A stretch of DNA of 64,000 bases from an uncultured Bacilli bacterium. GTDB taxonomy: Bacteria; Bacillota_I; Bacilli_A; RF39; UBA660. The notes under the pieces were generated by a model, which saw only the letters and a program-made list of their open reading frames with translations, made no database searches and had not been told where the DNA came from. The position numbers were made by a program, and so were the translations under genes. The DNA lies in contig CAJUPN010000001.1 in NCBI GenBank assembly GCA_910588195.1, positions 211,343 to 275,342 on the forward strand, written 5' to 3'. Position 1 is the first letter of the stretch. The number at the start of each line of letters is the position of its first letter. Below are positions 45,808 through 46,956 of this stretch, piece after piece.

Positions 45808-46074
45808 TTATTGATGATGTCTGTGATGTTTTCCTTGTCTATTATGTTGATGTCCTGAACTATTACAATTGTTTTCGCAAGTATTATTGTTTGGACAATT
45901 TTTAGTTTCAGTTGTTTCGTTATAATAAGGACAGTTTTCTTCGTTGTGATAAGGACAGTTTTGATTATATGTTGTTTGTTTATTTGTGTTTATATCATTG
46001 TTGTTATTTAAAGCATACACACTTGTAATCGTTAAAGTGGATGCTAATACTACGGCAATTAAATATTTTTTCAT
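45808..46074 (-). CDS. small secreted Cys/His/Asn-rich protein with NCPY repeats and His-rich tail
   Basis: Signal MKKYLIAVVLASTLTITSVYA, then repeats NCPYHNEENCPYYNE..NCPNNNTCENNC and tail GHQHNRQGKHHRHHQ. RBS ggagaaag on the minus strand. Confidence 0.5.
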   Translation of the reverse strand: MKKYLIAVVLASTLTITSVYALNNNNDINTNKQTTYNQNCPYHNEENCPYYNETTETKNCPNNNTCENNCNSSGHQHNRQGKHHRHHQ

Positions 46075-46261
46075 ATATCTTTCTCCTTCTTTTTCTTGAT
46101 TATATAAATATTATATGATGATGTCAATTGGAAATGTAAAAGAAAAATATCTTTTACATAGAAGTTATATAATAAATTTTGATTAGCAAAAAAGATGTAT
46201 GTAAAAGACTTTTGACAGACAAAAATTTATTTGTTTTATACAATGGAAATGGAGATGCAAA

Positions 46262-46843
46262 ATGAATATTGGTGTTCAAATAAAAAAATATAGGGAGAAA
46301 CAAAATATTAGTCAAGAAGAACTTGCTTTAAAAATATTTGTTTCAAGACAAACTATTTCAAATTGGGAAAACAATAAAAGTTATCCTGATATAAATAGTT
46401 TAATTATGTTAAGTGAAATATTTAATGTATCTCTCGATGATTTTATAAAAAATGATATAGAGGAGATGAGAAAGATTGTTGATAAAGATGTGATAAAGAA
46501 GTTTAATCTGGTAAGTTGGGCTTTTTCTTTAGAACTGATTAGTTTAGTTGTTAGTGCTTATCCGTTAGCTAAATTTTTTGATTATATTGGTATTTTTATT
46601 TGGATAATATTATTTTTCCTAACTTTGATAACAGGACATATAATAGAAAGATTTAAAAAAATTAATAATATTCAAACATTCAAAGAAATTTTAGCTTTTG
46701 TTGATGGAACTAAATTAAGTTACGAAGAAACTCAACAAGAATTGGGAAAAAGATTATATCAAAAAATCTTATATGCAATATTAGCTGGTGTAATAGCTCT
46801 TATTGTAAGTTTAATTATAATATTTATCTTTAATAATATTTAG
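46262..46843 (+). CDS. membrane-anchored XRE-family HTH regulator
   Basis: HTH_3 motif (ISQEELALKIFVSRQTISNWENNK) plus 3 C-terminal TM helices. Confidence 0.6.
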   Translation: MNIGVQIKKYREKQNISQEELALKIFVSRQTISNWENNKSYPDINSLIMLSEIFNVSLDDFIKNDIEEMRKIVDKDVIKKFNLVSWAFSLELISLVVSAYPLAKFFDYIGIFIWIILFFLTLITGHIIERFKKINNIQTFKEILAFVDGTKLSYEETQQELGKRLYQKILYAILAGVIALIVSLIIIFIFNNI

Positions 46844-46860
46844 AATAGGAGGAAAATAAT

Positions 46861-46956
46861 ATGGAATTTTGGATATTTATGATAGTATTTATATTTATTG
46901 GTGGAGGCTGTTCACTTACTGGTACTTGGTGGGTAAAAAAGAACAAGAAAAAGTAA
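46861..46956 (+). CDS. 31-aa hydrophobic peptide ORF
   Basis: Strong RBS taggaggaaaataat, then ATG. Encodes MEFWIFMIVFIFIGGGCSLTGTWWVKKNKKK*. Below the ORF-track size cut-off, and no competing ORF. Confidence 0.45.
   Translation: MEFWIFMIVFIFIGGGCSLTGTWWVKKNKKK

Follow-up and report, generated by a model that had tools for sequence, protein, structure and literature searches.

A predicted self-regulating transmembrane one-component regulator and the conserved microprotein gene that accompanies it in gut Firmicutes

A 64,000-nucleotide stretch of DNA from an uncultured Bacilli bacterium (contig CAJUPN010000001.1 of assembly GCA_910588195.1), here called the window and used at its full length for all coordinates, carries a gene for an XRE-type regulator with predicted transmembrane (TM) helices and, directly behind it, a gene of 31 codons. 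The small gene is a real protein-coding gene, and the two genes, judged by their sequence and position in many genomes, are a conserved functional pair or operon. Together with an operator and a promoter-like site the pair travels as one cassette through many gut Firmicutes. In the window the self-contained two-gene operon spans positions 46200-47012. The preferred reading of the module, which we judge about evenly balanced, is that of a transmembrane one-component regulator that controls its own expression and has a single-pass microprotein as its partner or its output.

The regulator gene (46262..46843, plus strand, with its TAG stop at 46841-46843 in the list of open reading frames (ORFs)) encodes 193 residues and has a GGAG ribosome-binding site (46251..46254, plus strand, read from the sequence) 7 nt 5' of the ATG. 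The only domain matched in Pfam is HTH_3 at residues 7-61 (E = 5.8e-18). By hydropathy the chain has three hydrophobic stretches (~82-102, 105-123, and 172-190). Both results agree with the initial annotation of an XRE helix-turn-helix (HTH) protein with three C-terminal TM helices. The chain comprises the XRE-type HTH (residues 1-65), a linker, TM1 (~82-102), TM2 (~105-128), a loop (129-167), and TM3 (~168-190); an AlphaFold2 model places the TM helices after residue 76. TM1 of the window copy is borderline, with a Kyte-Doolittle mean of ~1.5 by hand calculation against a cut-off of 1.6, and is more hydrophobic in homologues. The loop of ~40 residues is conserved (ERFKK.N.IQT[FY]KEILAF...GKR.YQK). 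From the charge distribution it is probably cytoplasmic and the last three residues are probably outside, so that by hydropathy and charge the extracytoplasmic parts would amount to ~5 residues (AKFFD) plus those last 3. With a DNA-binding domain and TM segments in one chain and no other domain, the protein belongs to the generic class of transmembrane one-component regulators.

Structure and sequence matches assign the HTH to the cI/P22 C2/SinR/CylR2 type. Outside the HTH the regulator has no match in Pfam, NCBIfam, PADLOC, or PHROGs, and searches of PDB sequences and with Foldseek returned HTH matches only. The initial statement that nothing at this locus can be annotated by motif was therefore right for the TM domain, for the microprotein, and for a secreted 88-residue neighbor (below), and wrong for the regulator HTH. 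More than 100 full-length homologues stand among the matches listed, with lengths of 191-216 residues (nearly all 191-201) and 63-70% identity, from Bacilli and Clostridia. Membership in a defense system was rejected because PADLOC matches the HTH alone. A phage origin was also rejected; a search of 2.9 million viral contigs gave 5 weak matches, and the phage records held no full-length close relative.

The microprotein gene (46861..46956, plus strand) begins 17 nt after the regulator stop, and the gap holds an AGGAGG ribosome-binding site (46847..46852, plus strand) 8 nt 5' of the ATG, which confirms the coordinates first given for this ORF. Its translation by ORF reading is MEFWIFMIVFIFIGGGCSLTGTWWVKKNKKK, that is, MEFWIFMIVFIFIGGGCSLTGTWW followed by VKKNKKK. 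The family consensus is MEFWIIMI.FI..GG.CSL.GTWW with a Lys-rich tail, from which the product is predicted to be a single-pass helix with a basic tail. Among 55 unique nucleotide versions of the 24-codon core, the entropies at the three codon positions were 0.47, 0.24, and 0.82, and the pooled ratio of nonsynonymous to synonymous polymorphism (pN/pS) was 0.28. Five residues of the core are invariant (M1, F3, C17, T22, and W24), and eight are nearly so (E2, W4, G14, G15, S18, L19, G21, and W23). A profile search of 5.8 billion proteins returned 160 peptide clusters with E-values down to 1e-18, and the peptide is annotated as a gene in public assemblies. Codon-position entropies, pN/pS, residue conservation, and profile clusters together establish that the mini-ORF is a protein-coding gene under purifying selection; its origin as a chance ORF in AT-rich DNA is rejected by the conservation, the profile matches, and the pN/pS. 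None of the 160 clusters carries a functional name or Pfam domain, and the window peptide matched nothing in Pfam, NCBIfam, PADLOC, or PHROGs. The mean p-distance of the peptide helix is 0.24, as against 0.39-0.44 for the TM helices of the regulator. In eight peptides (L031, L035, L061, L067, L071, L073, L080, and L082) the WW-plus-basic segment is tandemly duplicated, as in GTWWDRKWWDRKKK, and this segment can be read as a membrane-interface motif.

The peptide starts with Met-Glu and ends in a tail of charge +5, a layout that under the positive-inside rule would place the N terminus outside and the Lys-rich tail in the cytoplasm. A lipoprotein signal peptide was considered and rejected, since Met-Glu at the N terminus supplies neither the Lys nor the Arg of a basic n-region and the residues before the Cys do not form a lipobox [LVI][ASTVI][GAS]C, with Gly at -3 and Ser, Gly, Thr, or Asn at -1. 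The 13 residues before the GG pair are uniformly hydrophobic. The GG itself is kept in 53-54 of the 55 unique peptide sequences and stands immediately N-terminal to the most conserved segment, as would the end of a leader. A processed and exported peptide is nevertheless very unlikely. It would have the C-terminal.CSL.GTWW.KKKK released as a signal or antimicrobial peptide and sensed by the regulator, as CylLS'' is via CylR1/CylR2. Its mature part would be cationic and Trp-rich, the HTH is 42-43% identical to CylR2, whose system answers a peptide via the 3-TM CylR1, and a promoter under the regulator's own operator could give auto-induction. Yet the n-region is not basic, the +5 tail would be cytoplasmic, and few parts of the peptide are as well conserved as the putative leader (MEFWI.M). 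Nor does the module have, in the loci surveyed, a conserved neighbor encoding a C39-peptidase ABC exporter, PptAB, or a modification enzyme, and the regulator has neither a tetratricopeptide repeat (TPR) receptor domain nor detectable homology to CylR1 in its TM domain.

The constancy of the pair was assessed by scanning a one-genome-per-species collection with the regulator alignment, which gave 231 matching stretches. The best 80 were examined, and 78 were informative, the contigs of the other 2 ending too early. A peptide gene stands behind the regulator in 72 of these 78 loci (67 by the strict motif, 4 as variants, and 1 truncated), usually ~12-30 nt after the regulator stop; 6 loci have none. 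The four variants have a GTG start, ADTWW, GTLW, or a displacement of ~240 nt downstream. In three homologues from unrelated contexts (Thomasclavelia saccharogumia and two metagenomic lineages) an ORF of 33-38 codons with the motif MEF[WL]II...GG.CSL.GTWW and a basic tail begins 12-15 nt after each regulator, and reverse look-ups from two peptides (P0366 and P0347) found the regulator directly upstream in both. Clustering of flanking ORFs showed no universally conserved neighbor, the flanks varying by lineage. The proposal that regulator and mini-peptide form a true pair, and with it the conservation expected of the mini-ORF, is upheld by the 160 clusters, the 72 loci, and the conserved order within unrelated flanks.

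Two other origins of this arrangement were rejected. Read-through or a frameshift fusion of the two ORFs does not agree with a relative frame and gap length that differ among loci. The peptide as a split-off fourth TM helix is disfavored because peptide-less subfamilies are the norm, and no fused form occurs among the best 150 representatives, almost all of which have 186-205 residues.

A 55-residue ORF (M[FL]NLVYKS.VVECS.GVEDLAKAIEKKSEEML.KGY.LVTMSMV..DKAILVFKI), for which Pfam and PHROGs gave no match, lies downstream of the module in 10 loci (for example, L015:3753-3920). [Ruminococcus] torques ATCC 27756 (L058) has it immediately behind the regulator, at the expected place of the peptide gene, and in L066 it follows the peptide gene.

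The 80 stretches examined come from the Lachnospiraceae Blautia, [Ruminococcus] torques, Mediterraneibacter, Faecalimonas, and Frisingicoccus and, beyond that family, from Erysipelotrichales (Thomasclavelia and Amedibacillus), Ligaoa, and Emergencia. Cultured carriers include Thomasclavelia saccharogumia DSM 17460, Mediterraneibacter glycyrrhizinilyticus f23, and Amedibacillus dolichus DSM 3991. Six loci (L045-L047, L049, L050, and L055), labeled Clostridium sp. AF37-5, Ruminococcus sp. 5_1_39BFAA, Ligaoa, Blautia intestinihominis, a Blautia metagenome-assembled genome (MAG), and a 'Bacteroides' MAG, agree in their upstream genes and encode one and the same peptide. The upstream genes include two small ORFs and one for a 604-residue protein, and they resemble conjugative-transposon cargo. 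The context common to these six loci and the 61-70% identity across two bacterial classes indicate that the module is transferred horizontally; the six-locus case suggests a recent transfer on a mobile element.

Such patchy distribution and transfer, with 61-70% identity across Clostridia and Bacilli and one identical peptide in six loci, would also be expected of a toxin-antitoxin-like addiction or defense cassette, in which the peptide would be a membrane-depolarizing toxin and the XRE protein both its repressor and its intrabilayer antitoxin. The gene order fits, an XRE gene coming first and a gene for a small, hydrophobic, basic-tailed peptide second in a tight operon with its own operator; the bicistronic form and the operator on the own promoter match the type II layout. 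Some MAGs have two copies of the module and have lost the peptide from one (L030 with L093 in MAG MGBC165900; L039 with L089 in one Bacilli MAG). In L030 the peptide gene is internally deleted and the ribosome-binding site retained, in L039 the regulator gene is cut short by an early stop codon and is not followed by a detected peptide ORF, and the partner copy is intact in both cases. Decayed loci lose or damage the peptide and keep the regulator (L026, L030, L042, L062, L065, and L063, where GG has become EE), and loss of the regulator with the peptide kept was not seen among the fetched loci. Below threshold, the regulator HTH also matches NCBIfam models of HipB, PezA, and MqsA-type antitoxins. 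We nevertheless regard a toxin-antitoxin cassette as unlikely. The mini-ORF has a consensus ribosome-binding site at optimal spacing, unlike tightly throttled membrane toxins, no toxin model in Pfam or PADLOC matches, housekeeping genes surround the module in this genome, and the module is nearly absent from viral contigs (the 5 weak matches given above). Furthermore, distant homologues that have no peptide share the TM architecture and a similar operator, which argues that the TM domain did not arise to neutralize the peptide. The broader proposal in the initial annotation, that the regulator is joined to a small membrane toxin or modulator, is viable.

The operator of the window is an 18-bp palindrome, TGTAAAAGACTTTTGACA, at 46200..46217. 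Its family consensus is TGTCAAAGACTTTTGACA, with 7-bp arms and a 4-bp spacer. An operator was present in 72 of 72 distinct upstream regions, in most of them 62 nt before the regulator ATG, and its distance is fixed to the regulator gene and not to the neighboring gene. 3' of the palindrome the loci have, in order, GACAAAA, a -10-like TAtAAAAT or TACAAT, and GGAG(G); the GACA is seen repeatedly across loci and in distant subfamilies, as is a 17-nt spacing to the -10 box. One or two further operator sites lie upstream in 19 regions, typically 32, 43, or 64 bp away.

In the window the palindrome overlaps by 2 bp the -35 hexamer of a site detected by promoter scan at 46216..46244 on the plus strand (cAGACA at 46216-46221, a 17-nt spacer, and TACAAT at 46239-46244), the probable promoter of the operon. 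The operator centre would lie near -42.5. Bacteriophage lambda cI bound at OR2 activates PRM from such a geometry. This parallel, an operator at about -42.5 that overlaps a weak -35 hexamer by 2 bp, leads us to infer that the regulator controls its own promoter and to favor activation over repression.

The search for operator targets covered the 64 kb of the window and ~3 kb of flank at the other loci. The window operator is unique in the 64 kb at up to 3 mismatches, the matches in module-bearing loci all lie just upstream of the regulator, and no second target was found in either set. The only operator near the module is therefore the operon's own, which leaves the peptide as the only non-regulatory product visibly controlled. 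It could accordingly be asked whether the two products merely have a transcript in common and never make contact, the peptide being a regulated effector (for example, membrane-protective or membrane-remodeling) and the regulator sensing an unrelated membrane signal. A wider family that senses and autoregulates with no peptide would be in line with this idea, which we nonetheless consider distinctly unlikely in view of two features, neither of them decisive: the polar intramembrane residues of the subfamily co-occur with the peptide (below), and the unusually conserved peptide helix has a face of small residues typical of specific helix packing.

The wider family was delineated by an exhaustive search, which found many XRE-3TM proteins of ~190 residues at 33-50% identity; those read had no fused fourth helix. 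Distant members were also used to seed a metagenome scan; the regulators found there at 36-54% identity to the window protein had no MEFW...GTWW ORF downstream, and this ORF was confined to the subfamily of the window. The distant members keep a similar operator before their own genes, often in two copies and with (T/C)AGACA abutting. Since these homologues have the operator and not the peptide, the self-directed operator belongs to the family as a whole, and the peptide was added in one subfamily.

Some XRE-3TM homologues reside on small plasmids of Bacillus, Weissella, and Paraclostridium. Distant homologues at 41-47% identity, for which the annotation says no more than 'helix-turn-helix transcriptional regulator', are common on small mobilizable plasmids of Bacillus and Weissella such as B. 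thuringiensis pFR12 (L103) and Weissella confusa pCYLB30-1 (L104), and are further found on Enterococcus plasmids and megaplasmids. On the Paraclostridium plasmid (L105) a DUF4177 gene is convergent to the regulator homologue. A few distant members without the MEFW peptide are followed by other small membrane ORFs, which begin at about -1 (L114), +36 (L150), and +43 (L151) from the regulator stop and include one 54-residue single-TM protein and one two-TM protein of ~70 residues. An association with small membrane proteins may therefore have evolved repeatedly in the XRE-3TM family.

Residues specific to the subfamily were sought by comparing the alignment columns of 67 peptide-linked and 60 peptide-less regulators. 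The columns that separated the two sets best were three polar positions within the membrane. Glu-91 in TM1 is present in 99% of the peptide-linked and 2% of the peptide-less proteins, the latter having Leu, Met, His, or Phe; Thr-124 in TM2 also in 99 and 2%, with Phe, Tyr, or Trp in its place; and Tyr-100 at the end of TM1 in 100 and 5%, replaced by Val, Ile, or Ala. Their association with the peptide fits the conserved small and polar face that the peptide has (G14, G15, x, C17, S18 ... G21, T22).

The mechanism that we propose for the self-regulating regulator and its microprotein runs as follows. A membrane-tethered regulator dimer would bind the palindrome and control its own promoter. The peptide, inserted N-out and C-in, would pack with its small and polar face (GG.CS...GT) on TM1 and TM2 of the regulator at E91, T124, and Y100, giving a four-helix membrane unit. 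It could act there as co-sensor, stabilizer, or feedback modulator of the regulator, and possibly also as the main regulated output, with the module reporting or adjusting a membrane-level condition. A more specific version seems to us rather doubtful. It would have the XRE factor set within the bilayer by helix contact with the operon-encoded microprotein, with E91/T124 and GG.CS..GT as a polar clamp, and would make the unit a cell-autonomous bistable membrane-state switch or a membrane antitoxin-toxin pair, mobile among gut Firmicutes on conjugative elements.

A number of points weigh against the proposed partnership. Each of its mechanistic steps is reached by inference. The association of E91, T124, and Y100 with the peptide counts as a single evolutionary event owing to the single origin of the subfamily, and the peptide is not structurally required, given that the wider family works without it. 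A mirror-tree comparison, a weak test here, gave a correlation of peptide divergence with TM3 of 0.46, barely above the 0.40 obtained with the HTH. Six regulators of the subfamily lack an intact peptide gene (L026, where it is truncated, L030, L042, L058, L062, and L065). In addition, the palindrome contains a perfect TTGACA 21 nt from the -10 box, an arrangement that would allow repression, and sequence alone does not decide between activation and repression.

Downstream of the peptide gene, folding detected a terminator-like A+U-rich hairpin on the plus strand (46984..47012; a 9-bp stem at 46984-47005 followed by UUUUUAUUU), a weak candidate with a z-score of -0.82 relative to shuffled sequences. 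It probably marks the end of the two-gene operon. A consensus terminator scan of 45300-47300 found no terminator-like site, so none lies between the regulator and the mini-ORF; it overlooked the hairpin because the stem has too few G-C pairs.

On the other side the module adjoins, across a divergent intergenic region of 187 bp (46075-46261), a gene of the ORF list for a secreted Asn/His/Cys-rich protein of 88 residues (45808..46074, minus strand), which lies outside it. The protein begins with a Sec-type signal peptide (...SVYA|LNNN) and contains two NCPY(H/Y)NE units and one NCPN, and 7 His with a His-rich tail. These features and the spacer of ~190 bp agree with the first description, which had counted about nine Cys; there are 5. 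The divergent gene had also been placed in one unit with the regulator. Such a three-gene unit is rejected, as the gene is missing from every other genomic context of the module examined, the operator is spaced to the regulator, and a distant homologue (P0128) adjoins a Peptidase_M23 gene with no XRE-TM gene nearby. A promoter scan found a sigma-70 promoter with 12/12 consensus positions for the 88-residue protein (46099..46127, minus strand; TTGACA, a 17-nt spacer, and TATAAT), the -35 box lying ~73 bp from the operator. On this evidence the gene is an independent, accidental neighbor with its own consensus promoter.

Only 9 homologue clusters of the 88-residue protein were found. Among its relatives the number of NCPY units ranges from 1 to 4, C40 is the only invariant Cys, Tyr exchanges with the other Cys, and the His-rich tail is loosely kept; variable repeats and a single invariant Cys do not support the metal-binding or redox role once suggested. 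Two close relatives (P0123 and P0124) have an 80-residue form that lacks exactly one NCPYHNEE unit, so the repeat number shifts over short evolutionary distances. The product is a lineage-specific, secreted low-complexity protein that is probably well expressed.

The surroundings of the module in the window are ordinary chromosome with a G+C content of 26-29%, including the seryl-tRNA synthetase gene (serS), an Imm33 gene and, further off, genes for FtsK and a cysteine desulfurase-like aminotransferase. The Imm33 immunity gene (PF09951, E = 1e-32; 45369-45758, plus strand) lies between serS and the gene for the 88-residue protein and is an orphan, no toxin gene adjoining it; in the strain variant L022 a large serine recombinase replaces serS beside it. 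Between the convergent Imm33 and 88-residue genes is an A+T-rich hairpin on both strands (45755-45812; z-scores of -2.2 and -3.4), a probable bidirectional terminator. Directly 3' of the module, a 592-residue ORF (47066-48844, plus strand) has no match in Pfam, NCBIfam, PADLOC, or PHROGs and occupies the same place in near-identical assemblies and in close relatives with the 80-residue form of the secreted protein. In the 1266-residue protein that follows (48930-52730, plus strand), a family match (Glyco_hydro_3 N-terminal domain; beta-N-acetylhexosaminidase-like) is confined to the last ~330 residues, and the first ~930 have no family assignment.

Little is understood of either transmembrane one-component regulators or small membrane proteins, especially in the anaerobic gut Firmicutes, the dominant group of the human and mouse microbiome. 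The module supplies a testable system that combines a defined operator, a regulator family without a membrane-domain model, and a microprotein of ~30 residues linked to it in nearly every informative locus. Residues predicted to be important are E91, T124, and Y100 of the regulator and G14, G15, C17, S18, G21, T22, W23, and W24 of the peptide. The distant homologues that have the operator and lack the peptide form a natural comparison set for what the microprotein adds to a membrane sensor. At ~0.8 kb including the promoter-like site and the operator, the cassette could in principle be transferred to a model Firmicute.

In the literature searched on membrane-bound XRE regulators with small-peptide partners, the module, its TM domain, the peptide, and the pair are undescribed. 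The initial annotation had likened the pair to Rgg/SHP systems, and an XRE-type HTH regulator next to a very small ORF is indeed found in Rgg/SHP and ComR/XIP. However, receptors of the RRNPP family are cytoplasmic and always have C-terminal TPR or TPR-like repeats (bioRxiv 10.1101/2024.08.13.607696). The window regulator has three TM helices and no TPR domain, which refutes membership, and Foldseek aligns it only weakly to ComR and Rgg2 (TM-score ~0.3, root mean square deviation 13-20 Å, E ≥ 2.6e-3). The peptides differ as well. SHP-type propeptides have a basic N terminus and release their C-terminal end; the charge layout of the window peptide, with its acidic N terminus and basic tail, is the opposite.

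The peptide also resembles type I toxins of the Fst/Ldr family and PepA1, which have ~30 residues, an N-terminal hydrophobic helix, and a charged C-terminal tail. Unlike these, the window ORF has a strong ribosome-binding site, an operon position behind a protein regulator, no Pfam match, and no identified antisense RNA partner. A promoter-like match does lie downstream on the minus strand (47048-47019), and such matches occur at chance frequency (19 found, 17.1 expected).

Among the top solved HTH matches the highest identity, 42-43% over ~54 residues, is to CylR2, a 66-residue XRE HTH protein of Enterococcus faecalis. Its partner CylR1 has 94 residues and three predicted TM helices and is needed for the response to a membrane-active peptide (PMC3709268). 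The window regulator looks, by analogy, like the CylR1/CylR2 logic fused in one chain. Homology of its TM domain to CylR1 was sought and rejected (hhalign probability 0.1%), and no lanthipeptide operon, a trait of the CylR system, was linked to the module in the recurrent neighbor clusters or Pfam-annotated contexts examined. In further contrast to the Cyl system, the partner is not a lantibiotic subunit but a 31-residue, unmodified-looking downstream ORF.

In architecture, an N-terminal XRE-type HTH followed by C-terminal TM helices, the regulator is like BcrR of E. faecalis. BcrR is a membrane-bound XRE-type one-component bacitracin sensor that binds DNA from the membrane with no phosphorelay; it has four TM helices and controls the adjacent bcrABD transporter operon. 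The window regulator differs from it in having three TM helices, a separate gene for a one-helix peptide, and an operator on its own promoter. Linkage to an ABC transporter, the BcrR trait, is not conserved, ABC-transporter-like ORFs being found near 12 loci only and in varied position and orientation. BcrR is listed among transmembrane transcription regulators (PMC10269533), and the pairs ToxR/ToxS, TcpP/TcpH, VtrA/VtrC, and PsaE/PsaF likewise combine a membrane-tethered factor with a co-transcribed downstream membrane modulator (PMC10269533, PMC9214523). As in ToxR/ToxS, the gene for the membrane partner lies downstream, here 17 nt away with its own ribosome-binding site and conserved in 72 of the 78 loci. 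The ToxR-type systems have an OmpR-type winged helix, a single TM helix, a periplasmic sensor, and folded periplasmic partners; in contrast, the window unit has an XRE HTH and three TM helices, almost no extracytoplasmic residues in its regulator, and a partner that is little more than a single TM helix. MgrB and SafA, which act on PhoQ, are single-TM microproteins of <50 residues under the control of the system that they modulate, and so provide feedback. Their target is a histidine kinase and they are encoded elsewhere in the regulon, whereas the candidate target in the window is a one-component regulator encoded by the adjacent gene. By analogy with these systems, the unit would work like a BcrR-class regulator equipped with a ToxR/ToxS-like co-transcribed membrane partner or an MgrB-like feedback modulator.

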